A stretch of DNA of 64,000 bases from assembly GCF_002854065.1 (NCBI RefSeq), contig NZ_CP024147.1; one strand, 5' to 3'. The translations under genes and the position numbers were made by a program. This stretch comes from Escherichia coli. GTDB taxonomy: Bacteria > Pseudomonadota > Gammaproteobacteria > Enterobacterales > Enterobacteriaceae. The notes beneath the pieces were generated by a model. It was not told the DNA's origin and did not search any database. It saw only the letters and a list, made by a program, of their open reading frames with translations. How positions within the stretch are numbered: the first letter of the stretch is position 1; every line of letters begins with the position of its first letter. This document shows, in pieces, positions 20,413 through 56,878 of the stretch.

Positions 20413-20539
<127 letters not shown>

Positions 20540-40311: not shown

Positions 40312-42390
40312 ATGTCATATACACCGATGAGTGATCTCGGACAGCAAGGGTTGTTCGACATCACTCGGACACTATTGCAGCAGCCCGATCTGGCCTCGCT
40401 GTGTGAGGCTCTTTCGCAACTGGTAAAGCGTTCTGCGCTCGCCGACAACGCGGCTATTGTGTTGTGGCAAGCGCAGACTCAACGTGCGTCTTATTACGCA
40501 TCGCGTGAAAAAGACACCCCCATTAAATATGAAGACGAAACTGTTCTGGCACACGGTCCGGTACGCAGCATTTTGTCGCGCCCTGATACGCTGCATTGCA
40601 GTTACGAAGAATTTTGTGAAACCTGGCCGCAGCTGGCCGCAGGTGGGCTATACCCAAAATTTGCTCACTATTGCCTGATGCCACTGGCGGCGGAAGGGCA
40701 TATTTTTGGTGGCTGTGAATTTATTCGTTATGACGATCGCCCCTGGAGCGAAAAAGAGTTCAATCGTCTGCAAACATTTACGCAGATCGTTTCTGTCGTC
40801 ACCGAACAAATCCAGAGTCGCGTCGTTAACAATGTCGACTATGAGTTGTTATGCCGGGAACGCGATAACTTCCGCATCCTGGTCGCCATCACCAACGCGG
40901 TGCTTTCCCGCCTGGATATGGACGAACTGGTCAGCGAAGTCGCCAAAGAAATCCATTACTATTTCGATATTGACGATATCAGTATCGTCTTACGCAGCCA
41001 CCGTAAAAACAAACTCAACATCTACTCCACTCACTATCTTGATAAACAGCATCCCGCCCACGAACAGAGCGAAGTCGATGAAGCCGGAACCCTCACCGAA
41101 CGCGTGTTCAAAAGTAAAGAGATGCTGCTGATTAATCTCCACGAGCGGGATGATTTAGCCCCCTATGAACGCATGTTGTTCGATACCTGGGGCAACCAGA
41201 TTCAAACCTTGTGCCTGTTACCGCTGATGTCTGGCGACACCATGCTGGGCGTGCTGAAACTGGCGCAATGTGAAGAGAAAGTGTTTACCACTACCAATCT
41301 GAATTTACTGCGCCAGATTGCCGAACGTGTGGCAATCGCTGTCGATAACGCCCTCGCCTATCAGGAAATCCATCGTCTGAAAGAACGGCTGGTTGATGAA
41401 AACCTCGCCCTGACCGAGCAGCTCAACAATGTTGATAGTGAATTTGGCGAGATTATTGGCCGCAGCGAAGCCATGTACAGCGTGCTTAAACAAGTTGAAA
41501 TGGTGGCGCAAAGTGACAGTACCGTGCTGATCCTCGGTGAAACTGGCACGGGTAAAGAGCTGATTGCCCGTGCTATCCATAATCTCAGTGGGCGTAATAA
41601 TCGCCGCATGGTCAAAATGAACTGCGCGGCGATGCCTGCCGGATTGCTGGAGAGCGATCTGTTTGGTCATGAACGTGGGGCTTTTACTGGTGCCAGCGTC
41701 CAGCGTATCGGTCGTTTTGAACTGGCGGATAAAAGCTCCCTGTTCCTCGACGAAGTGGGCGATATGCCACTGGAGTTACAGCCGAAGTTGCTGCGTGTAT
41801 TGCAGGAACAGGAGTTTGAACGCCTCGGCAGCAACAAAATCATTCAGACGGACGTGCGTCTAATCGCCGCGACTAACCGCGATCTGAAAAAAATGGTCGC
41901 CGACCGAGAGTTCCGTAGCGATCTCTATTACCGCCTGAACGTATTTCCGATCCACCTGCCGCCACTACGCGAGCGTCCGGAAGATATTCCGCTGCTGGCG
42001 AAAGCCTTTACCTTCAAAATTGCCCGTCGTCTGGGGCGCAATATCGACAGCATTCCTGCCGAGACGCTGCGCACCTTGAGCAACATGGAGTGGCCGGGTA
42101 ACGTACGCGAACTGGAAAACGTCATTGAGCGCGCGGTATTGCTAACACGCGGCAACGTGCTGCAGCTGTCATTGCCAGATATTGCTTTACCGGAGCCTGA
42201 AACGCCGCCTGCCGCAACGGTTGTCGCTCAGGAGGGCGAAGATGAATATCAGTTGATTGTTCGCGTGCTGAAAGAAACTAACGGCGTGGTTGCCGGGCCT
42301 AAAGGCGCTGCGCAACGTCTGGGGCTGAAACGCACGACCCTGCTGTCACGGATGAAGCGACTGGGAATTGATAAATCGGCATTGATTTAA
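40312..42390 (+). CDS. fhlA: Formate hydrogenlyase transcriptional activator FhlA (sigma54 enhancer-binding protein)
   Basis: ORF with GAF domains, AAA+ GETGTGKE and GAFTGA, C-terminal HTH; start set at MSYTPMSDLGQQGLF. Confidence 0.95.
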   Translation: MSYTPMSDLGQQGLFDITRTLLQQPDLASLCEALSQLVKRSALADNAAIVLWQAQTQRASYYASREKDTPIKYEDETVLAHGPVRSILSRPDTLHCSYEEFCETWPQLAAGGLYPKFAHYCLMPLAAEGHIFGGCEFIRYDDRPWSEKEFNRLQTFTQIVSVVTEQIQSRVVNNVDYELLCRERDNFRILVAITNAVLSRLDMDELVSEVAKEIHYYFDIDDISIVLRSHRKNKLNIYSTHYLDKQHPAHEQSEVDEAGTLTERVFKSKEMLLINLHERDDLAPYERMLFDTWGNQIQTLCLLPLMSGDTMLGVLKLAQCEEKVFTTTNLNLLRQIAERVAIAVDNALAYQEIHRLKERLVDENLALTEQLNNVDSEFGEIIGRSEAMYSVLKQVEMVAQSDSTVLILGETGTGKELIARAIHNLSGRNNRRMVKMNCAAMPAGLLESDLFGHERGAFTGASVQRIGRFELADKSSLFLDEVGDMPLELQPKLLRVLQEQEFERLGSNKIIQTDVRLIAATNRDLKKMVADREFRSDLYYRLNVFPIHLPPLRERPEDIPLLAKAFTFKIARRLGRNIDSIPAETLRTLSNMEWPGNVRELENVIERAVLLTRGNVLQLSLPDIALPEPETPPAATVVAQEGEDEYQLIVRVLKETNGVVAGPKGAAQRLGLKRTTLLSRMKRLGIDKSALI

Positions 42391-42434
42391 CAGATGTGGT
42401 TATACTCGATCAACATTCAATGAAAGGAGGCAGT

Positions 42435-42863
42435 ATGGCAGTTTCAGCAAGAAATCAATTAACCGGAACAGTTAGCGCAGTAGCAATGGGCGCGGTGAAT
42501 GACGAAGTAGAACTGACGCTGGCAGGTGGTGCAAAACTGGTGGCGATTGTTACACACAGCAGCCAACAGGCTCTGGGGCTGGCAAAAGGGAAAGAAGCGA
42601 TTGCCCTGATTAAAGCCCCGTGGGTAACGCTGGCCACGGAAGACTGTGGACTGAAATTCTCTGCTCGCAACCAGTTTGCTGGCAGCGTGTCGACAATCAC
42701 CGAAGGCGCAGTGAACGCCACTGTCCATATCAAAACGGATGCGGGTTTTGAAATTGTGGCAGTGGTAACAAATGAAAGTCAGGATGAAATGAAACTTACC
42801 ACTGGCTCACGCGTTATTGCGTTGATCAAAGCATCAGCAATCCTGATTGCTACCAAAGCGTAA
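42435..42863 (+). CDS. Standalone di-Mop (tandem TOBE) molbindin, predicted molybdate/tungstate-binding protein
   Basis: 142-aa ORF with strong SD AAAGGAGG 6 nt upstream; two ~70-aa repeats each starting SARNQ(L/F)(T/A)G(T/S)VS with the Mop/TOBE signature. Confidence 0.8.
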   Translation: MAVSARNQLTGTVSAVAMGAVNDEVELTLAGGAKLVAIVTHSSQQALGLAKGKEAIALIKAPWVTLATEDCGLKFSARNQFAGSVSTITEGAVNATVHIKTDAGFEIVAVVTNESQDEMKLTTGSRVIALIKASAILIATKA

Positions 42864-42874
42864 GCGCCTTATTT

Positions 42875-42897
42875 GCCGGAGAGTATGGCTCTCCGGC
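42875..42897. terminator. Bidirectional terminator hairpin between the molbindin gene and convergent ygbA
   Basis: GCCGGAGAGtatggCTCTCCGGC stem-loop with T-rich flank. Confidence 0.7.
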
Positions 42898-42901
42898 AGA
42901 T

Positions 42902-43246
42902 TTATTTCTTTGGACGATATTTTTCTGGCAACTCCGGCACCGGACGCTTGTCATCGATGAGATGACGCACGGTTAAGATCGGATGACGCCACAGCATTCT
43001 CGGCCCGGCCCAACGCATAATCTGTTTCATCTCTTCACGCTTTGCAGGCTGGTAACAGTGCACCGGACACTGCTTACAGGCTGGCTTCTCTTCGCCGAAC
43101 ACACATTTATCCAGCCGCTTTTGCGCGTAAACAAACAACGCCTCGTAATGCTCCGGCTCCGCTGACGCCTGCGGGCATTTCGCTTGATAAAGATCGATCA
43201 TTTTTTTAATCGTCAGTTTTTCACGAGAGATACGCTTGCCGGACAT
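42902..43246 (-). CDS. ygbA: YgbA-family protein (NsrR-regulon, nitrosative stress induced)
   Basis: 114-aa ORF MSGKRISREKLTIKKMIDLYQAKCPQ with CxxC...CxxC cysteines. Confidence 0.85.
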   Translation of the reverse strand: MSGKRISREKLTIKKMIDLYQAKCPQASAEPEHYEALFVYAQKRLDKCVFGEEKPACKQCPVHCYQPAKREEMKQIMRWAGPRMLWRHPILTVRHLIDDKRPVPELPEKYRPKK

Positions 43247-43261
43247 ACTGCCTCCACCTCA

Positions 43262-43294
43262 TTAAGATGCATTTATATTACAACTTAATCTTAA
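43262..43294. promoter_or_regulatory. Putative NsrR operator in the ygbA promoter region
   Basis: TTAAGATGCATTTatattacaacttAATCTTAA: AAGATGCATTT matches the NsrR half-site as I recall it; outer arms are inverted repeats. Confidence 0.5.
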
Positions 43295-43532
43295 AGGGCA
43301 CTATGACTCTAAAGAAGAAGGGTTAGCCAACCGATACAATTTTGCGTACTTGCTTCATAAGCATCACGCAAAAGCTGCAAAACAGCATCTTTCCCGGAAC
43401 CAGCATCAAGAACTCGCCGTTCGCTTCTTCCCCTGAAATGATTAACTCCGGTATCATGTGCGCCTTATGTGATTACAACGAAAATAAAAACCATCACACC
43501 CCATTTAATATCAGGGAACCGGACATAACCCC

Positions 43533-46094
43533 ATGAGTGCAATAGAAAATTTCGACGCCCATACGCCCATGATGCAGCAGTATCTCAAGCTGAAAGCCCA
43601 GCATCCCGAGATCCTGCTGTTTTACCGGATGGGTGATTTTTATGAACTGTTTTATGACGACGCAAAACGCGCGTCGCAACTGCTGGATATTTCACTGACC
43701 AAACGCGGTGCTTCGGCGGGAGAGCCGATCCCGATGGCGGGGATTCCCTACCATGCGGTGGAAAACTACCTCGCCAAACTGGTGAATCAGGGCGAGTCCG
43801 TTGCCATCTGCGAACAAATTGGCGATCCGGCGACCAGCAAAGGTCCGGTTGAGCGCAAAGTTGTGCGTATCGTTACGCCAGGCACCATCAGCGATGAAGC
43901 CCTGTTGCAGGAGCGTCAGGACAACCTGCTGGCGGCTATCTGGCAGGACAGCAAAGGTTTCGGCTACGCGACGCTGGATATCAGCTCCGGGCGTTTTCGC
44001 CTGAGCGAACCGGCTGACCGGGAAACGATGGCGGCAGAACTGCAACGCACTAATCCTGCGGAATTGCTGTATGCAGAAGATTTTGCTGAAATGTCGTTAA
44101 TTGAAGGCCGTCGCGGCCTGCGCCGTCGCCCGCTGTGGGAGTTTGAAATCGACACCGCGCGCCAGCAGTTGAATCTGCAATTTGGGACCCGCGATCTGGT
44201 CGGTTTTGGCGTCGAGAACGCGCCGCGCGGACTTTGTGCTGCCGGTTGTCTGTTGCAGTATGCGAAAGATACCCAACGTACGACTCTGCCGCATATTCGT
44301 TCCATCACCATGGAACGTGAGCAGGACAGCATCATTATGGATGCCGCGACGCGTCGTAATCTGGAAATCACCCAGAACCTGGCGGGTGGTGCGGAAAATA
44401 CGCTGGCTTCTGTGCTCGACTGCACCGTCACGCCGATGGGCAGCCGTATGCTGAAACGCTGGCTGCATATGCCAGTGCGCGATACCCGCGTGTTGCTTGA
44501 GCGCCAGCAAACTATTGGCGCATTGCAGGATTTCACCGCCGAGTTACAGCCGGTACTGCGTCAGGTGGGCGATCTGGAACGTATTCTGGCGCGTCTGGCG
44601 TTGCGTACTGCTCGCCCGCGCGATCTGGCCCGTATGCGCCATGCTTTCCAGCAACTGCCGGAACTGCGCGCGCAGTTAGAAAATGTCGATAGTGCACCGG
44701 TACAGGCGCTGCGTGAGAAGATGGGCGAGTTTGCCGAACTGCGCGATCTGCTGGAGCGGGCAATCATCGACACACCACCAGTGCTGGTACGCGACGGTGG
44801 TGTTATCGCACCGGGCTATAACGAAGAGCTGGATGAGTGGCGGGCGCTGGCTGACGGCGCGACCGATTATCTGGAGCGTCTGGAAATCCGCGAGCGTGAA
44901 CGTACCGGCCTGGACACGCTGAAAGTCGGATTTAACGCGGTGCATGGTTATTACATTCAGATCAGCCGTGGACAAAGCCATCTGGCCCCCATCAACTACA
45001 TGCGTCGCCAGACGCTGAAAAATGCCGAGCGCTACATTATTCCAGAGCTAAAAGAGTACGAAGATAAAGTTCTCACCTCAAAAGGCAAAGCACTGGCACT
45101 GGAAAAACAGCTTTATGAAGAGCTGTTCGACCTGCTGTTGCCGCATCTGGAAGCGTTGCAACAGAGCGCAAGCGCGCTGGCAGAACTTGATGTGCTGGTT
45201 AACCTGGCGGAGCGGGCCTATACCCTGAACTACACCTGCCCGACTTTTATTGATAAACCGGGTATTCGCATCACCGAAGGCCGCCATCCGGTGGTTGAAC
45301 AGGTGCTGAATGAGCCGTTTATCGCCAACCCGCTGAACCTGTCGCCACAGCGTCGCATGTTGATCATTACCGGTCCGAATATGGGCGGTAAAAGTACCTA
45401 TATGCGCCAGACCGCACTGATTGCGCTGATGGCCTACATCGGCAGCTATGTACCGGCACAAAAAGTTGAGATTGGACCTATCGATCGCATCTTTACCCGC
45501 GTAGGGGCAGCGGATGATCTGGCATCCGGGCGTTCAACCTTTATGGTGGAAATGACCGAAACCGCCAATATTTTACATAACGCCACCGAATACAGTCTGG
45601 TGTTAATGGATGAGATCGGGCGTGGAACGTCCACTTACGATGGTCTGTCACTGGCATGGGCGTGCGCGGAAAATCTGGCGAATAAGATTAAGGCATTGAC
45701 GCTGTTTGCTACCCACTATTTCGAGCTGACCCAGTTACCGGAGAAAATGGAAGGCGTCGCCAACGTGCATCTCGATGCACTGGAGCACGGCGACACCATT
45801 GCCTTTATGCATAGCGTGCAGGATGGCGCGGCGAGCAAAAGCTACGGCCTGGCGGTTGCAGCTCTGGCGGGCGTGCCAAAAGAGGTGATTAAGCGCGCAC
45901 GGCAAAAACTGCGTGAGCTGGAAAGTATTTCGCCGAACGCCGCCGCTACACAAGTGGATGGTACGCAAATGTCTTTGCTGTCAGTACCGGAAGAAACCTC
46001 GCCAGCGGTCGAAGCTCTGGAAAATCTCGACCCGGATTCACTAACTCCGCGTCAGGCGCTGGAATGGATTTATCGCTTGAAGAGTCTGGTGTAA
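43533..46094 (+). CDS. mutS: DNA mismatch repair protein MutS
   Basis: 853-aa [43 protein letters not shown] with Walker [10 protein letters not shown]. Confidence 0.98.
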
Positions 46095-51540: not shown

Positions 51541-52836
51541 ATGTCCACAATTACATTGTTATGCATTGCGTTAACTGGCGTAATCATGCTGTTGCTGCTG
51601 GTCATCAAGGCAAAGGTACAACCATTCGTTGCTCTGCTCCTCGTCAGCCTGTTAGTCGCACTTGCGGCGGGTATACCGGCGGGCGAAGTGGGTAAAGTGA
51701 TGATCGCCGGGATGGGCGGTGTGCTTGGTTCCGTCACTATTATTATTGGTCTGGGCGCTATGCTGGGGCGTATGATCGAACACTCTGGTGGTGCAGAGTC
51801 ACTGGCTAATTATTTCAGTCGCAAGTTAGGTGACAAACGAACTATCGCTGCGCTGACTCTGGCAGCGTTCTTCCTCGGTATTCCCGTCTTCTTTGATGTC
51901 GGCTTTATTATTCTTGCGCCAATCATTTACGGTTTTGCCAAGGTTGCCAAAATATCGCCACTCAAATTTGGCCTGCCTGTCGCTGGGATCATGCTAACTG
52001 TACATGTGGCGGTACCGCCGCATCCAGGCCCTGTCGCCGCAGCAGGGTTACTCCACGCAGACATCGGCTGGCTAACCATCATCGGTATTGCGATTTCTAT
52101 TCCCGTAGGGATTGTTGGCTACTTTGCAGCGAAAATAATCAATAAGCGCCAATATGCGATGTCGGTGGAAGTACTGGAACAGATGCAACTGGCTCCGGCC
52201 AGTGAGGAAGGCGCGACAAAATTAAGCGATAAAATAAATCCACCGGGCGTCGCGCTGGTCACCTCGCTAATTGTTATTCCTATCGCGATTATCATGGCGG
52301 GTACGGTTTCCGCAACACTGATGCCGCCTTCGCATCCCCTGCTTGGTACGCTACAGCTGATCGGCTCACCAATGGTAGCTCTAATGATTGCGCTGGTGCT
52401 GGCATTCTGGTTATTGGCTTTACGTCGCGGCTGGAGCTTACAACACACCAGCGACATTATGGGCTCAGCGCTTCCTACTGCGGCGGTAGTGATTTTGGTT
52501 ACTGGTGCTGGAGGGGTATTTGGCAAAGTGCTGGTGGAATCGGGCGTCGGCAAAGCCCTTGCCAACATGTTACAAATGATTGACCTGCCTCTGTTACCAG
52601 CCGCATTTATTATTTCACTGGCGCTGCGTGCATCGCAGGGGTCAGCAACCGTAGCAATACTGACAACCGGCGGGTTACTCTCAGAAGCGGTGATGGGATT
52701 GAATCCGATTCAGTGCGTATTGGTGACGCTGGCAGCCTGCTTTGGTGGGCTTGGTGCGTCACATATTAATGACTCAGGGTTCTGGATTGTGACCAAATAT
52801 CTGGGATTGTCGGTAGCAGACGGTCTGAAAACCTAG
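51541..52836 (+). CDS. ygbN: GntP-family permease, apparently truncated by an in-frame TAG
   Basis: 431-aa polytopic ORF; the 22 codons after the TAG (TVLTTILGFTGFLITWCVWAVI, ending TGA at 52903-52905) are in frame and hydrophobic. Confidence 0.8.
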   Translation: MSTITLLCIALTGVIMLLLLVIKAKVQPFVALLLVSLLVALAAGIPAGEVGKVMIAGMGGVLGSVTIIIGLGAMLGRMIEHSGGAESLANYFSRKLGDKRTIAALTLAAFFLGIPVFFDVGFIILAPIIYGFAKVAKISPLKFGLPVAGIMLTVHVAVPPHPGPVAAAGLLHADIGWLTIIGIAISIPVGIVGYFAAKIINKRQYAMSVEVLEQMQLAPASEEGATKLSDKINPPGVALVTSLIVIPIAIIMAGTVSATLMPPSHPLLGTLQLIGSPMVALMIALVLAFWLLALRRGWSLQHTSDIMGSALPTAAVVILVTGAGGVFGKVLVESGVGKALANMLQMIDLPLLPAAFIISLALRASQGSATVAILTTGGLLSEAVMGLNPIQCVLVTLAACFGGLGASHINDSGFWIVTKYLGLSVADGLKT

Positions 52837-52912
52837 ACAGTGTTAACGACCATTCTCGGTTTTACCGGATTCTTAATTACCTGGTGCGTATGGGCGGTAA
52901 TTTGACCTTAAT

Positions 52913-52943
52913 AAAAAGGTCCGATGAGCATCGGACCTTTTAT
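52913..52943. terminator. Bidirectional terminator between ygbN and the convergent decarboxylase operon
   Basis: AAAAAGGTCCGATGagcaTCGGACCTTTTATTT, stem-loop flanked by A-run and T-run. Confidence 0.75.
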
Positions 52944-53180
52944 TTAGCGCTTATCTGCCGCCAGCAGCGGCGGAATGCTCGGCACCATTGGCGCGTCATC
53001 AATATCTTTCTGCGTCATGCGGAACTCTTCGGGATAATGTTCGCGGCTGGTACGGCGCAGCGGTTCGGTATCGCGCCAGGTATAAAGGCAATGCTGGCAC
53101 TGATATACCGTCCAGACATCTTTCACCGGCGATTTCGCCATCACTTCAATCTGTTCATCGGCACAACGTGGACAAATCAT
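52944..53180 (-). CDS. Small subunit of a UbiD-type aromatic acid decarboxylase (YclD/KpdD-like)
   Basis: 78-aa ORF MICPRCADEQIEVMAKSPVKDVWTVYQCQHC with CxxC...CxxC zinc-ribbon-like cysteines, immediately after the UbiD-like gene. Confidence 0.75.
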   Translation of the reverse strand: MICPRCADEQIEVMAKSPVKDVWTVYQCQHCLYTWRDTEPLRRTSREHYPEEFRMTQKDIDDAPMVPSIPPLLAADKR

Positions 53181-53190
53181 CTTCTTCTCC

Positions 53191-54618
53191 TTATTTACGT
53201 GCAGCCAGCATAGCGGTCAGTTTTTCAGCCCAGGCTTTGGTTTCCGGCAAATCCACCACCGGCTGGCTGTAGTGACCACGGTTGTCCGGGGCGACAGGCG
53301 TGGTGGCGTCGATAATCAGCTTGTCGGTGATCCCCGCCGGGCTTGAGCCAGGGTCGAGTTCCAGCACGGACATATTCGGCAACTGCACCAAATCCCCTGC
53401 CGGGTTCACTTTCGAGGAGAGCGCCCACATCACCTGCGGCAGGTTGAACGGATCAACGTCTTCATCGACCATAATCACCATCTTCACGTAGCCCAGACCG
53501 TGCGGCGTGGTCATCGCGCGCAGGCCCACCGCGCGGGCAAAGCCGCCGTAGCGTTTTTTGGTGGAGATAATCGCCAGCAGGCCGTGGGTGTACATGGCGT
53601 TTACCGCCTGCACTTCCGGGAACTCGGCTTTCAGTTGTTGATATAGCGGTACGCAGGTGGCTGGCCCCATCAGGTAGTCGATTTCGGTCCACGGCATGCC
53701 GAGGTACAGCGATTCGAAAATCGGCCTGGTGCGGTAAGAGACTTTATCGATGCGCACCACGGTCATGTTACGCCCGCCGGAGTAGTGTCCGGTAAACTCA
53801 CCGAACGGCCCTTCGATTTCGCGTTTACGGCTTTCGATGACCCCTTCGAGGATCGCTTCTGAACCCCACGGCACATCAAAACCGGTCAGCGGGGCGGTGG
53901 CGATCGGGTACGAGCTTTCACGCAGCGCGCCTGCCATTTCATACTCAGACTGATCGTATTTCAGCGGCGTGGCCCCCATCAGCGTGATGATCGGATCGTT
54001 ACCGAGCGTGATCGCAATCGGCAGATCTTCACCGCGCTCTTCTGCTTTATGCAGATGCAGGGCGATATCGTGCATCGGCACCGGTTGCAGGCCGAGCTTA
54101 CGCTTGCCCTTCACTTCCATGCGGTAGATGCCGACGTTCTGCTTGCCGAAGTTATCCGGGTCGAGCGGATCGCGGGAAACCACGCACGCTTTGTCGAGAT
54201 AGAAACCGCCATCACCGTCGTTTAAACGAAACAGCGGCAGGATATCGAACAGATTAATCTCGTCACCATCGACGGTGTTCTGCGCCCAGGCTGGATTGGC
54301 GCGGCGCTCCGGGGCAATCGGGAAGTTATCCCAGCGGCGGATAAACTCATCAATCTGTTTTTTAACCGGGGTGTTTGGCGGCAGGCCCAAGGAAATCGCG
54401 TGGTTCTGCCAGGAACCGATGGTATTCATCGCCACGCGGGCATCGGTAAAACCGCGAATATTATCAAACCACAGCGCCGGTGCACCATCGCCGATACGCC
54501 CGGTGGCGTTGGCAGCGGCAGCCAGATCCGGTTCCGCGTTCACCTCTTCGCTGATTTTCAGTAACTGGCCGTGGTCATCAAGCGCCTGTAAAAAGCTGCG
54601 TAAATCATCAAATGCCAT
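53191..54618 (-). CDS. UbiD-family (prenylated-FMN dependent) decarboxylase
   Basis: 475-aa ORF MAFDDLRSFLQALDDHGQLLKISEEVNAEPDLAAAANA typical of UbiD/phenolic acid decarboxylase subunit C. Confidence 0.85.
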   Translation of the reverse strand: MAFDDLRSFLQALDDHGQLLKISEEVNAEPDLAAAANATGRIGDGAPALWFDNIRGFTDARVAMNTIGSWQNHAISLGLPPNTPVKKQIDEFIRRWDNFPIAPERRANPAWAQNTVDGDEINLFDILPLFRLNDGDGGFYLDKACVVSRDPLDPDNFGKQNVGIYRMEVKGKRKLGLQPVPMHDIALHLHKAEERGEDLPIAITLGNDPIITLMGATPLKYDQSEYEMAGALRESSYPIATAPLTGFDVPWGSEAILEGVIESRKREIEGPFGEFTGHYSGGRNMTVVRIDKVSYRTRPIFESLYLGMPWTEIDYLMGPATCVPLYQQLKAEFPEVQAVNAMYTHGLLAIISTKKRYGGFARAVGLRAMTTPHGLGYVKMVIMVDEDVDPFNLPQVMWALSSKVNPAGDLVQLPNMSVLELDPGSSPAGITDKLIIDATTPVAPDNRGHYSQPVVDLPETKAWAEKLTAMLAARK

Positions 54619-55211
54619 TATTCATTCTCCTGAGAAAAATTCCGGGCCTGCGGCAATCCTTGCCAGCGCCTGGCGTAGGGATGTTCAAGGCCAAATTGAT
54701 CCAGCACGCGGGCTACCACGTGGTGGACAATGTCATCTACCGTTTCGGGATGGTTATAAAAGGCAGGCATCGGCGGCACCATCGCCACGCCCATGCGTGA
54801 AAGTGCGAGCATATTTTCGAGATGGATGGTGTTAAGCGGCATTTCACGCGGCACCAGTACCAGTTTGCGGCCTTCTTTGAGCACGACGTCCGCCGCGCGC
54901 CCTACCAGGCCATCGGCGTAACCAGCGCGGATACCGGCGAGCGTTTTCATACTGCACGGAATAACGATCATGCCGTCGGTACGAAAGGAACCTGAGGAGA
55001 TGGTCGCCGCCTGATCCGCCGGGTTATGGCTGAAGTCAGCGAGGGCAGCAACATCGCGGGCGCTGTAAGGCGTTTCCAGTTCAATGGTGGTTTTCGCCCA
55101 CTTCGACATCACCAGATGAGTCTCGATATTCGGCATCTCCTGCAGCGCTTGCAGTAATGCCACACCAAGAGGCGCACCGGTAGCCCCTGTCATCCCGACG
55201 ATCAGTTTCAT
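54618..55211 (-). CDS. UbiX/Pad1-family flavin prenyltransferase
   Basis: 197-aa ORF MKLIVGMTGATGAPLGVALLQAL with flavoprotein motif; stop overlaps the UbiD-like start. Confidence 0.85.
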   Translation of the reverse strand: MKLIVGMTGATGAPLGVALLQALQEMPNIETHLVMSKWAKTTIELETPYSARDVAALADFSHNPADQAATISSGSFRTDGMIVIPCSMKTLAGIRAGYADGLVGRAADVVLKEGRKLVLVPREMPLNTIHLENMLALSRMGVAMVPPMPAFYNHPETVDDIVHHVVARVLDQFGLEHPYARRWQGLPQARNFSQENE

Positions 55212-55324
55212 TGCTTACTCTCTTAATTGTTCGTATACGAACGTTATTATTAAAATACGCCTCTGTTCTCATTGCGGCAAGCACTGAAAAGTAACAACAT
55301 CCCCTTCGTCACTGAAAAACCGCT

Positions 55325-55765
55325 ATGATAGCGGCAGATAGTTTGCCCGGAGTTTACATGGCGTTACGAAATAAAGCGTTCCATCAGTTACGACAGCTTT
55401 TTCAGCAGCACACATCTCGCTGGCAGCACGAGTTACCTGACCTGACCAAACCACAGTATGCGGTGATGCGTGCCATTGCTGATAAGCCTGGTATCGAACA
55501 GGTGGCACTGATAGAAGCAGCAGTCAGCACCAAAGCAACGCTGGCAGAAATGTTGGCAAGAATGGAAAATCGTGGCTTAGTCAGACGTGAACATGACGCC
55601 GCTGATAAGCGGCGACGCTTTGTCTGGCTGACTGCCGAAGGAGAAAAGATACTTGCTGCGGCGATACCGATTGGTGACAGCGTGGATGAGGAATTTTTGG
55701 GGCGTTTGAGTGCAGAAGAGCAGGAGCTGTTTATGCAGCTGGTGCGCAAGATGATGAACACATAG
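55325..55765 (+). CDS. MarR/SlyA-family transcriptional regulator, divergent from the decarboxylase operon
   Basis: 146-aa ORF with winged-helix region TKPQYAVMRAIADKPGIEQVALIEAA; true start may be the internal Met at 55358. Confidence 0.8.
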   Translation: MIAADSLPGVYMALRNKAFHQLRQLFQQHTSRWQHELPDLTKPQYAVMRAIADKPGIEQVALIEAAVSTKATLAEMLARMENRGLVRREHDAADKRRRFVWLTAEGEKILAAAIPIGDSVDEEFLGRLSAEEQELFMQLVRKMMNT

Positions 55766-55833
55766 GATGCAAATTGCCGGGTAGGACGCTGACGTGTCTT
55801 ATCCAGGCGACAAAAACACATGCTTCCCAAACA

Positions 55834-55872
55834 AAAGAAAAAAGGCCAGCCTCGCTTGAGACTGGCCTTTCT
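55834..55872 (-). terminator. rpoS rho-independent terminator
   Basis: Minus strand GGCCAGTCTCAAGCGAGGCTGGCC hairpin followed by TTTTTTCTTTTG. Confidence 0.75.
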
Positions 55873-55885
55873 GACAGATGCTTAC

Positions 55886-56878
55886 TTATTCGCGGAACAG
55901 CGCTTCGATATTCAGCCCCTGCGTTTGCAGGATTTCGCGCAAACGGCGCAGGCCTTCAACCTGAATCTGGCGAACACGTTCACGGGTGAGGCCAATTTCA
56001 CGACCTACATCTTCCAGTGTTGCCGCTTCGTACCCAAGCAAACCGAATCGACGTGCCAGCACTTCACGCTGTTTGGCGTTCAGTTCGAACAGCCATTTGA
56101 CGATGCTCTGCTTCATATCGTCATCTTGCGTGGTATCTTCCGGACCGTTCTCTTTTTCATCGGCCAGGATGTCCAGCAACGCTTTTTCGGAATCACCACC
56201 CAGCGGGGTGTCTACCGAGGTAATGCGCTCGTTAAGACGAAGCATACGGCTGACGTCATCAACTGGCTTATCCAGTTGCTCTGCGATCTCTTCCGCACTT
56301 GGTTCATGGTCCAGCTTATGGGACAACTCACGTGCGGTTCGCAGGTAAACGTTCAGCTCCTTTACGATGTGAATCGGCAAACGAATAGTACGGGTTTGGT
56401 TCATAATCGCCCGTTCAATCGTCTGGCGAATCCACCAGGTTGCGTATGTTGAGAAGCGGAAACCACGTTCCGGGTCAAACTTCTCTACCGCGCGGATCAG
56501 CCCCAGGTTGCCCTCTTCGATAAGGTCCAGCAACGCCAGACCACGATTGCCATAACGGCGGGCAATTTTTACCACCAGACGCAAGTTACTCTCGATCATC
56601 CGGCGGCGAGAGGCGACATCTCCACGCAGTGCGCGACGCGCAAAATAAACTTCTTCTTCGGCCGTTAACAGTGGTGAATAACCAATCTCACCAAGGTAAA
56701 GCTGAGTCGCGTCCAACACACGCTGTGTGGCTCCCTGCGATAACAGTTCCTCTTCGGCCAAATCGTTATCACTGGGTTCCTCTTCTACTAAGGCCTTTTC
56801 GTCAAAAACCTCAACTCCGTTCTCATCAAATTCCGCATCTTCATTTAAATCATGAACTTTCAGCGTATTCTGACTCAT
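55886..56878 (-). CDS. rpoS: Stationary-phase sigma factor RpoS (sigma38), apparently intact
   Basis: ORF contains [37 protein letters not shown]; start set at MSQNTL (330 aa); codon 33 is GAG (Glu). Confidence 0.97.

Follow-up and report, generated by a model that had tools for sequence, protein, structure and literature searches.

The closest described counterpart of the locus analyzed here is hosA-ecdBCD of Escherichia coli O157:H7 and EPEC (pad1-yclC-yclD with 'slyA'), in which genes, order, orientation and flanks are all alike. The two are separated by allelic differences only, the ygbN gene beside our copy having a nonsense codon; proteins of the O157-type locus are 96-100% identical to those described below and the operator is identical. 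The orthologous KpdBCD of Klebsiella pneumoniae and HadBCD of Enterobacter cloacae (amino acid identities of 96-97% for EcdC, 85-87% for EcdB and 88-90% for EcdD) have a hosA-like regulator, the operator and the adjacency to rpoS as in E. coli. Unlike E. coli, they carry a second operator-like copy upstream, and several Klebsiella and Enterobacter genomes have ~2.6 kb of extra DNA between rpoS and hosA. More distant are the VdcCD enzymes of Sedimentibacter hydroxybenzoicus and Bacillus subtilis (ShdCD, BsdCD; PDB 7AE4), which share a full-length UbiD-type C subunit (~58% identical), identical zinc-ribbon cysteine positions in the D subunit and the B-C-D operon logic. However, these are Firmicutes enzymes that are regulated differently, without the HosA/operator module, and the linker of their D subunit is shorter (68 aa versus 78 aa for the EcdD studied here). 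UbiX and UbiD of E. coli belong to the same two superfamilies as EcdB and EcdC and use the same prFMN chemistry, but the substrate of UbiD is membrane-bound and prenylated, and the enzyme has neither a D subunit nor HosA control. The names kpdBCD, hadBCD, vdcBCD and pad1-yclC-yclD with 'slyA' are synonyms for the same locus.

Here, a 64-kb stretch of E. coli DNA (the window) was analyzed, in which the segment at 52944-55765, beside rpoS, holds a B-C-D operon on the minus strand, coding for proteins of 197, 475 and 78 aa, and a divergent MarR-family gene (Table 1). This segment is almost certainly the already described hosA-ecdBCD locus. It is an ordinary locus, carried by ~44% of complete E. 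coli genomes, and the locus, its polymorphism, the crystal structure of the B protein, the regulator, the operator and the effector have all been published already, with RefSeq naming the genes correctly; its weight as a discovery is therefore small. Gene content, family assignments above cut-offs, catalytic and zinc-binding motifs, the operator and its deep conservation, frequency, synteny and divergence were established directly.

Table 1. Features of the hosA-ecdBCD locus and its flanks, in positions of the 64-kb window.
Feature	Position	Strand	Description
ygbN (o454)	51541-52905	+	GntP-family transporter, left flank; pseudogene here
Bidirectional intrinsic terminator	52909-52946		common to ygbN (+) and ecdD (-)
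ecdD (vdcD/kpdD/hadD)	52944-53180	-	78-aa zinc-ribbon subunit, predicted to activate the C subunit
ecdC (vdcC/kpdC/yclC/hadC)	53191-54618	-	475-aa UbiD-family, predicted prFMN-dependent hydroxyarylic acid decarboxylase
ecdB (vdcB/kpdB/pad1/hadB)	54618-55211	-	197-aa UbiX-family flavin prenyltransferase, predicted to make prFMN
HosA operator	55229-55242		14-bp palindrome GTTCGTATACGAAC, located 18 bp 5' of the ecdB ATG
Predicted ecdB promoter	55252-55280	-	-35 TTGCCG (55280-55275), 17-nt spacer, -10 TATTTT (55257-55252)
Palindrome ACCGCTATGATAGCGGC	55319-55335		upstream of the hosA start; 7-pair hairpin
hosA ('slyA' or kpdR in older annotations)	55358-55765	+	135-aa MarR-family protein, predicted repressor of ecdBCD
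Degenerate REP-like element	55776-55811	+	between hosA and the rpoS terminator
rpoS intrinsic terminator	55839-55872	-	15-pair stem followed by a T-run; 13-nt arms
rpoS	55886-56878	-	right flank; NCBIfam RpoS PRK05657, 604 bits; RefSeq annotation

The open reading frames form a tightly spaced, co-directional set in the order B, C, D, in which the stop codon of the 197-aa gene and the start codon of the 475-aa gene overlap by 1 nt (ATGA) and a gap of 10 nt, with GGAG inside, separates C from D. In profile searches all three products exceeded the curated NCBIfam cut-offs for VdcB (NF041206, 311 bits versus 290), VdcC (NF041204, 785.7 versus 650, covering profile positions 2-466 of 467) and VdcD (equivalog NF041205, 121.2 versus 30), and the broader models TIGR00421 (ubiX_pad, 246 versus 109) and TIGR00148 (UbiD family, 416 versus 245) placed EcdB and EcdC in the UbiX and UbiD families. 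The first-pass annotation of UbiX-like, UbiD-like and small-subunit genes with a MarR/SlyA-type regulator, for which it proposed family membership as a check, was thereby borne out by matches far beyond chance. The highest score for EcdB came from BagM_FevK (340), under that model's own cut-off of 420, and this assignment was rejected. Against solved structures, EcdB matched PDB 1SBZ over residues 1-197 (E=3.8e-129) and is essentially this protein, the E. coli O157:H7 Pad1 described as a 'probable aromatic acid decarboxylase'. EcdC matched VdcC (7AE4_A) over residues 3-471 (E=2.8e-159), and EcdD matched ShdD (7AE4 chain a, E=1.7e-11). The E(D)RE-type motif of EcdC lies in GIYR (R166) and EGPFGE (E269, E274), residues that are identical in the aligned ShVdcC of 7AE4 and that we take, by motif rather than structural overlay, to be those of Fdc1. 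This E(D)-R-E motif is integral for activity (PMC8379154), and Cys3, 6, 28 and 31 of EcdD, which make up two CXXC knuckles, are at the positions of the ShVdcD zinc ligands C3, C6, C28 and C31 (PMC8379154). Across Enterobacteriaceae EcdC retains 95-99% amino acid identity, with a dN/dS of ~0.02.

The divergent regulator, separated from ecdB by a 146-bp spacer, is HosA. It matches Pfam MarR (PF01047, E=1.3e-11) and is 97.8% identical in amino acids to the O157-type protein; no HosA-specific NCBIfam model exists, and the best model, BagL_FevM, gave 87 bits, under its cut-off of 230. The gene ends at 55765, but the start implied by the first-pass annotation, ATG 55325, probably gives too long a protein (146 aa), since RefSeq, on identical sequence, starts its 'MarR family winged helix-turn-helix transcriptional regulator' at 55358 and the DNA from one ATG to the other varies in length and sequence across other genera. 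The primary HosA paper is reportedly that of Roy and Ranjan from 2016, to which PMC13355054 and PMC6261655 both refer for the protein. The palindrome GTTCGTATACGAAC with its flanks exactly matches the binding-site oligonucleotides listed for HosA in table S1 of PMC6261655, and TTCGTnnACGAAC did not vary among 17 taxa, which extend from E. coli to Vibrio and Shewanella, at a mean intergenic identity of 40%. 4-Hydroxybenzoate dissociates HosA from the 14-bp site, with a KD of 4.74 µM by ITC (PMC6261655), and this release has been reported for HosA of both UMN026 and O157:H7 (PMC6261655, PMC13355054). The response of E. coli HosA is strong and specific to 4-hydroxybenzoate when compared to 3-hydroxybenzoate, benzoate, 4-aminobenzoate and 4-methylbenzoate (PMC13355054).

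In the ecdB-hosA spacer, nothing exceeded the threshold of a simple scan for sigma-70 promoters. The ecdB promoter predicted here scored below that threshold and agrees with the consensus at 8 of 12 positions; with this placement, the operator would sit at approximately +3 to +16. Alignment of the intergenic region across genera showed that the CTTGnC and GTATTTTAAT blocks were kept and that the TATCATA core of ACCGCTATGATAGCGGC was at least 90% conserved. The latter palindrome may serve as the hosA -10 (TATGAT) or as a second site of regulation.

On the left, ygbN scored 779 bits against NCBIfam PRK09821, covering only profile positions 1-431 of 454, and an amber codon (W432*) is found at 52834-52836, where K-12 has TGG instead of TAG. 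The same gene is annotated as a pseudogene ('internal stop') in the two nearest genomes, CUWW06 and strain 100416. The ygbI-ygbN segment, which had been described as complete, is thus complete as DNA, but its ygbN is not intact. The intergenic repeat that follows has 18-nt arms (89% complementary) with a run of A and a run of T at its sides, and the left K-12 deletion breakpoint falls within it at ~52943/52944: K-12 is collinear through '...ggaccttttatt' and then skips to the rpoS terminator. The right breakpoint lies just outside the latter, at ~55830-55842, with K-12 sequence common again from 'aaaaggccagcctcgc' on. Between hosA and this terminator, the REP-like element has 7 mismatches to what we take to be the REP consensus and is one of only two plus-strand matches at nine or fewer mismatches in the window; the region around it (55766-55840) folds at -23.3 kcal/mol. 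Both boundaries, a bidirectional terminator on the left and the rpoS terminator with REP-like sequence on the right, were therefore as the first-pass annotation had drawn them.

The frequency of this arrangement was assessed by typing the junctions in 5426 complete E. coli genomes, 5384 of which showed one of four types: ygbN/rpoS (K-12-type, 1944), ygbN/ecdD as in the window (1592), ygbN/MBL-hydrolase (B2-type, 1042) or pphB/ecdD (O157-type, 806). The hosA-ecdBCD segment was present in 2380-2417 genomes, always chromosomal and in single copy. As had been stated in the first-pass annotation, a segment of ~2.9 kb (~52944 to ~55840) is absent from K-12, where MG1655 ygbN lies only 93 bp from rpoS, and is carried by O157:H7-type strains, which have it directly beside pphB and lack ygbI-N. 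Its coexistence with ygbI-ygbN is likewise evident from the ygbN/ecdD junction of the window. By the junction counts, this combination is the commonest islet-bearing state (1592 of ~2400 carriers) and nothing special. It was published as 'pattern IV', that of EPEC E2348/69 (Ewers et al. 2014, PMC4209514), whose gene order o454(ygbN)-kpdD-kpdC-kpdB-slyA-rpoS is that of the window. In-silico PCR produced amplicons of 4547 (o454-nlpD), 1394 (slyA-nlpD), 7365 (mutS-yclC) and 15193 bp (fhlA-nlpD), matching those published for E2348/69 with the same pairs (4546, 1394, 7365 and 15192 bp; PMC4209514). The allele itself is rare, occurring at ≥99% identity in only 2 of the 5426 genomes; it is 2-4% diverged from the studied O157, UMN026 and E2348/69 alleles and from common alleles, while its flanks are 99-100% identical.

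For the effector, the repression, the enzymatic activity and the function of the D subunit, we drew on the literature about E. coli HosA proteins 97-98% identical to this one and about homologous enzymes (EcdC of Klebsiella and Enterobacter, ~96-97% identical; ShVdcC of Sedimentibacter, ~58%). Following these precedents, a HosA dimer on GTTCGTATACGAAC, just upstream of ecdB, would repress the operon, and binding of 4-hydroxybenzoate (reported KD of about 5 µM) would take HosA off the DNA. EcdB would prenylate FMN to prFMN, with which EcdC would convert 4-hydroxybenzoate to phenol and CO2 in a reversible, non-oxidative reaction and, probably, vanillate to guaiacol and CO2; EcdD would be the zinc-ribbon subunit that VdcCD-type enzymes need for activity. 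The allele of the window is presumably both expressed and active. Direct enzymology of the E. coli enzyme is said to have been carried out by Lupa et al. in 2005. In vitro, the VdcCD homologues (~58% identity to EcdC) act as decarboxylases on both 4-hydroxybenzoate and vanillate, and VdcC is oxygen-sensitive and requires VdcD for activity (PMC8379154). Genera with the KpdC-type HadBCD (KpdBCD) are tabulated as phenol producers, with HadC 93-100% identical in Enterobacteriaceae (PMC6424909).

The substrate had been considered not determinable from the sequence, a question that the literature largely settles, as HosA is specific for 4-hydroxybenzoate. It is quite unlikely that HosA sensing tells only part of the story and that the main activity is instead on vanillate, protocatechuate or gallate, or is a reverse phenol carboxylation. 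Acceptance of both 4-hydroxybenzoate and vanillate by VdcCD homologues (PMC8379154), the generic NCBIfam family name ('hydroxyarylic acid') and the reversibility of UbiD-family reactions would all allow for this. However, E. coli HosA distinguishes 4-hydroxybenzoate from related benzoates (PMC13355054), near-identical HadC (93-100%) is found in phenol producers from a screen that included 4-hydroxybenzoate (PMC6424909), and EcdC matches solved protocatechuate decarboxylases far more weakly (E ~1e-23 to 1e-26) than VdcC (1e-159). Shared family membership could also suggest that EcdB and EcdC are a spare UbiX and UbiD for ubiquinone synthesis, decarboxylating 3-octaprenyl-4-hydroxybenzoate. The HosA effector 4-hydroxybenzoate doubles as the ubiquinone ring precursor, which would agree with such a role. 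This is nevertheless scarcely credible, given that EcdC scored only 173 bits on the UbiD ubiquinone equivalog (PRK10922, cut-off 788) against 786 on VdcC, that a dedicated VdcD subunit is encoded, and that the 56% of E. coli genomes without the module, K-12 included, still make ubiquinone. It is plausible that UbiD could receive prFMN from EcdB, although this would be cofactor sharing and not the function of the operon.

Similar scrutiny applies to the term islet, which had been used for the segment and which fits its variable presence among E. coli but implies an acquisition that synteny and synonymous divergence speak against. The module is an ancestral enterobacterial neighbor of rpoS that K-12 has lost, and not an insertion, since at least 13 further genera of enterobacteria have it adjoining rpoS-nlpD (Citrobacter, Pseudocitrobacter, Kluyvera, Klebsiella, Enterobacter, Leclercia, Lelliottia, Atlantibacter, Kosakonia, Franconibacter, Mangrovibacter, Cedecea, Pluralibacter, Salmonella and Phytobacter) and its dS equals that of the flanks (ecdC 0.7-0.9 versus other genera; nlpD 0.75-0.97). 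That it is instead a horizontally acquired islet, inserted downstream of rpoS in O157-/EPEC-type lineages with K-12 as the ancestral empty site, is very improbable. Besides patchy presence in E. coli, this reading can draw on the GC content of the segment (0.56-0.60 versus ~0.51), on an ecdC GC3 of 0.70 versus ~0.53 in the flanks, which alone would suggest foreign origin, and on the early term 2.9-kb 'insertion', as summarized in PMC4209514. Against it stand not only the shared position beside rpoS-nlpD and the synonymous divergence of ecdC, which is that of nlpD and rpoS, but also the lack of any integrase, transposase, tRNA or flanking direct repeat at the locus, the lack of plasmid copies among 20,395 records and the terminator-to-terminator K-12 junction, as a deletion would give. 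Membership in a genomic island was rejected, as the segment is without mobility genes or direct repeats, is syntenic in those genera and has the dS of its flanks. Under the ancestral reading, presence and absence in E. coli reflect lineage-specific loss or replacement: a clean deletion from the ygbN terminator to that of rpoS in the K-12-type, an MBL-hydrolase/flavodoxin pair in place of the module in the B2-type, and loss of ygbI-N in the O157-type.

EcdC is conserved about as strongly as RpoS and its place beside rpoS has been kept in more than 12 genera, yet 56% of complete E. coli genomes have lost the module, by at least two routes (clean deletion and MBL-hydrolase/flavodoxin replacement). 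From this, strong niche-dependent antagonistic selection on the module could be proposed, although we regard it as unlikely. If true, the module would pay off where 4-hydroxybenzoate from plants or tyrosine, or parabens, are abundant and be costly elsewhere, via drain of the ubiquinone ring precursor or toxic phenol. Whether a genome has it would then be a genuine ecological or host-metabolite marker of E. coli lineages (for phenol and phenyl sulfate production) rather than the neutral residue of a recombination hot spot. Overall, the census provides up-to-date frequencies for all four types of the region, together with a clear case for the K-12 state being a deletion, and the strain has a mutS-rpoS region of the E2348/69-type 'pattern IV' class. 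By analogy with the characterized enzymes, it is predicted to be able to turn 4-hydroxybenzoate into phenol, a trait that would bear on gut phenol and phenyl sulfate production and on tolerance of phenolic acids and parabens.

Four genes occupy the interval from the natural end of ygbN (52905) to the rpoS stop codon (55886), a tightly packed ecdB-ecdC-ecdD operon and the divergent MarR-type gene hosA. The coordinates and anatomy given in the first-pass annotation proved correct, as the open reading frames, both terminators and the REP-like element were recovered as described and a permissive E-value Rfam scan of 52600-56100 detected no RNA gene, with sub-threshold matches confined to the two terminator hairpins (best match, 22.6 bits; gathering score, 50). 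Only one other REP-like match with nine or fewer mismatches was present on the + strand of the 64-kb window, a good REP at 20434-20469. The start of hosA follows RefSeq, as annotated in a genome with 100% identity; a 146-aa MarR frame beginning at the ATG at 55325 was rejected because its extension is unconserved in length and sequence and its ATG sits inside a conserved palindrome.

Features of the hosA-ecdBCD segment and its flanks (window positions)
Feature	Position	Strand	Description
ygbN	51541-52905		left flank; nonsense codon at 52834-52836
Left boundary hairpin	52909-52946		18-nt arms, A-run on one side and T-run on the other; serves ygbN and ecdD
ecdD	52944-53180	-	78 aa; 10-nt gap after ecdC, with GGAG ribosome site within gap
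ecdC	53191-54618	-	475 aa; start overlaps ecdB stop as ATGA
ecdB	54618-55211	-	197 aa; first gene of operon
HosA operator	55229-55242		14-bp palindrome, 18 bp upstream of ecdB ATG
Putative ecdB -10	55257-55252		
Putative ecdB -35	55280-55275		
Palindrome ACCGCTATGATAGCGGC	55319-55335		just upstream of hosA start codon
hosA	55358-55765	+	135 aa; MarR-type, divergent
REP-like element	55776-55811	+	degenerate, ahead of rpoS terminator; seven mismatches to the REP consensus
rpoS terminator	55839-55872		right boundary

The prediction of UbiX-like, UbiD-like and small-subunit genes was borne out, as all three products exceeded the curated NCBIfam cut-offs for subunits B, C and D of non-oxidative hydroxyarylic acid decarboxylase (EcdB, 311 bits against 290; EcdC, 786 against 650; EcdD, 121 against 30). 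EcdC fell below the NCBIfam ubiquinone UbiD model (173 against a cut-off of 788). EcdB is essentially the crystallised Pad1 of E. coli O157:H7 (PDB 1SBZ; E=3.8e-129, all 197 residues), and EcdC and EcdD match the Sedimentibacter VdcC/VdcD complex (PDB 7AE4; E=2.8e-159 and 1.7e-11). The R...E-x4-E catalytic motif is retained in EcdC (R166, E269, E274), as are four zinc-binding cysteines in EcdD (positions 3, 6, 28 and 31), which are the positions of the zinc ligands in ShVdcD (PMC8379154). The VdcC/VdcD complex decarboxylates 4-hydroxybenzoate and vanillate using prFMN from a UbiX-type enzyme, is sensitive to oxygen, and shows no activity when VdcC lacks VdcD (PMC8379154). Assignments to the bagremycin proteins BagM (for EcdB) and BagL (for HosA) were rejected because their scores lay under the curated cut-offs. 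In the papers found under them, the names EcdB, EcdC and EcdD are mostly put to unrelated uses, and also appear for accessory genes of Enterobacter cloacae employed in muconate engineering; PMC13253662 and PMC11481567 had no bearing on the locus. In about 11 Enterobacterales species, including Superficieibacter, Cedecea, Chimaeribacter, Siccibacter, some Rahnella and Erwinia endophytica, hosA-ecdC-ecdD occurs without ecdB in the expected gap (loci L040, L052, L053, L060, L064, L066, L072, L073, L078, L080 and L081); these modules presumably rely on the housekeeping UbiX for prFMN.

A Pfam MarR domain agrees with the MarR/SlyA-family label first given to the regulator. The regulator is HosA (PMC13355054, PMC6261655), with 4-hydroxybenzoate as its known effector, which largely answers the substrate question. 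The E. coli O157:H7 regulator gave an up to 38-fold, highly specific 4-hydroxybenzoate response in a reporter circuit (PMC13355054), and HosA of E. coli UMN026 is released by 4-HBA from a 14-bp palindromic site (KD 4.74 uM), represented in the supplement by oligonucleotides ...CTCTTAATT-GTTCGTATACGAAC-GTTATTATTAAAATACGCCTCTG (PMC6261655). The window carries this exact oligonucleotide sequence, flanks included. In an alignment of the ecdB-hosA spacer from 17 taxa, ranging from E. coli to Vibrio and Shewanella, no position of TTCGTnnACGAAC varied, against a spacer mean identity of 40%, which lends independent comparative support to this site as the HosA operator. A sigma-70 scan gave no hit above threshold in the spacer, and its two hits, both inside coding sequence, equalled shuffle expectation, so the ecdB promoter was placed by conservation: CTTGnC and GTATTTTAAT blocks conserved upstream in the alignment suggest -35 and -10 elements, an arrangement in which the operator would lie immediately after the transcription start. 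The palindrome ACCGCTATGATAGCGGC, which holds the ATG of the spurious 146-aa frame, has a TATCATA core at least 90% conserved across Enterobacteriaceae within an otherwise unconserved spacer, and TATGAT within it could be the hosA -10. In Klebsiella, Enterobacter, Kluyvera, Pseudocitrobacter, Vibrio and Shewanella (L018, L034, L043, L008, L074 and L083), a second operator-like copy (CGTnTACGAAC / GTTCGTnnACGAAC) sits ~60-70 bp further upstream than the main HosA operator. No such second site was found in the aligned E. coli alleles (window 55285-55300), suggesting that hosA autoregulation may differ among genera.

Of 5426 complete E. coli genomes, 2379 cover at least 80% of the 3049-bp segment and 2417 match when the interior alone is queried; it is always on the chromosome and in single copy. 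No counterpart exists in K-12 MG1655, where ygbN and rpoS are 93 bp apart: this genome follows the window as far as '...ggaccttttatt' and matches it again from the rpoS terminator onward, a terminator-to-terminator deletion of ~2.9 kb. O157-type genomes have ecdD directly after pphB, without ygbI-N, and the absence from K-12 and presence in O157:H7-type strains given in the first-pass annotation thus held. Junction-specific 300-bp queries assigned 5384 of the 5426 genomes to four types, namely ygbN-rpoS (K-12-type, 1944 genomes), ygbN-ecdD (this window, 1592), ygbN-MBL-hydrolase (B2/ST131/CFT073-type, 1042) and pphB-ecdD (O157-type, 806), the same four patterns that Ewers et al. 2014 described (PMC4209514). 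The window is pattern IV, whose reference strain EPEC E2348/69 has the order o454, kpdD, kpdC, kpdB, slyA, rpoS, and the published primers yielded in silico products of 4547, 1394, 7365 and 15193 bp (published, 4546, 1394, 7365 and 15192 bp; PMC4209514). The co-occurrence of both variable blocks therefore stands, but as the commonest islet-bearing arrangement, already documented, and not as a special state.

The fhlA-mutS interval (41907-43580) is the long 1674-bp form with the c3292/TOBE-domain gene at ~42434-42862; it accompanies pattern IV here, against the text of PMC4209514, which calls this amplicon size exclusive to pattern III strains, and the table of that paper contradicts itself about this amplicon in E2348/69. 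A rare fifth arrangement was seen in E. coli AREA_494 (L085, 3352-4884), where an IS1 element links truncated copies of pphB and a flavodoxin gene, with loss of all sequence from mutS/pphB to the B2-type insert next to rpoS.

The window is 99.98% identical over 23 kb to E. coli CUWW06 (wastewater, Thailand), and the islet reaches at least 99% identity only there and in strain 100416 (human stool, Gambia); 2390 genomes carry it at 95-99%. In 250-bp bins (52750-56000 against L087, L088 and L003), the islet shares 90-98% identity with a typical pattern-IV genome and its flanks ygbK-M and rpoS-nlpD 99-100% within E. coli; the bins of the two non-coding spacers (55250 and 55750) drop to ~90-91%. 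This divergence is the known hyper-polymorphism of the mutS-rpoS region, and no gene, motif or operator of the islet is disrupted in the window allele. The ygbI-ygbN block, described as complete, is present with ygbN as a pseudogene: a TGG->TAG change (W432*) cuts 23 of the 454 residues from the C-terminus, so the block is probably without its transporter in this lineage. The internal stop is also annotated in CUWW06 and strain 100416, and ygbN is intact in K-12 and MINF_2E.

Overall, the islet observation is confirmed and its interpretation supported with four corrections, concerning the HosA effector, the common both-blocks state, the ygbN pseudogene and ancestry, and hosA-ecdBCD is already known in every checkable respect. 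With regard to ancestry, the word islet suggests acquisition, but the segment is ancestral and has been lost elsewhere. Raised GC (0.56-0.60; ecdC GC3 0.70) is the sole feature pointing to insertion, and that model was rejected on evidence from other genera. Among 80 loci with close EcdC relatives (88-99% aa identity; one genome per species, neighbours located by tblastn), hosA-ecdBCD directly adjoins rpoS-nlpD in Citrobacter, Pseudocitrobacter, Kluyvera, Klebsiella, Enterobacter, Leclercia, Lelliottia, Atlantibacter, Kosakonia, Franconibacter, Mangrovibacter, Cedecea and Pluralibacter, and the module remains next to rpoS, though inverted, in Salmonella and Phytobacter. Pantoea, Rahnella, Erwinia, Vibrio and Shewanella have the module with no rpoS within 8 kb. 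Nei-Gojobori dS for ecdC against Citrobacter, Salmonella, Klebsiella and Enterobacter (0.7-0.9) falls in the range of the flanks (nlpD, 0.75-0.97; rpoS, 0.4-0.95), with dN/dS of ~0.02. In Pseudocitrobacter (L006-L008), ecdC and ecdD are much closer to window 52944-54618 (dS 0.35 and 0.18) than the adjacent rpoS and nlpD are to theirs (0.70 and 0.99), a hint of recombination between genera that was limited to ecdCD. The ancestral-and-lost view is reportedly in line with the title and general argument of Herbelin et al. 2000. Together, rpoS adjacency across genera, flank-like dS and low dN/dS show that the module is a long-standing neighbour of rpoS, passed on vertically and kept under strong purifying selection, which K-12-type and B2-type genomes have lost or replaced.
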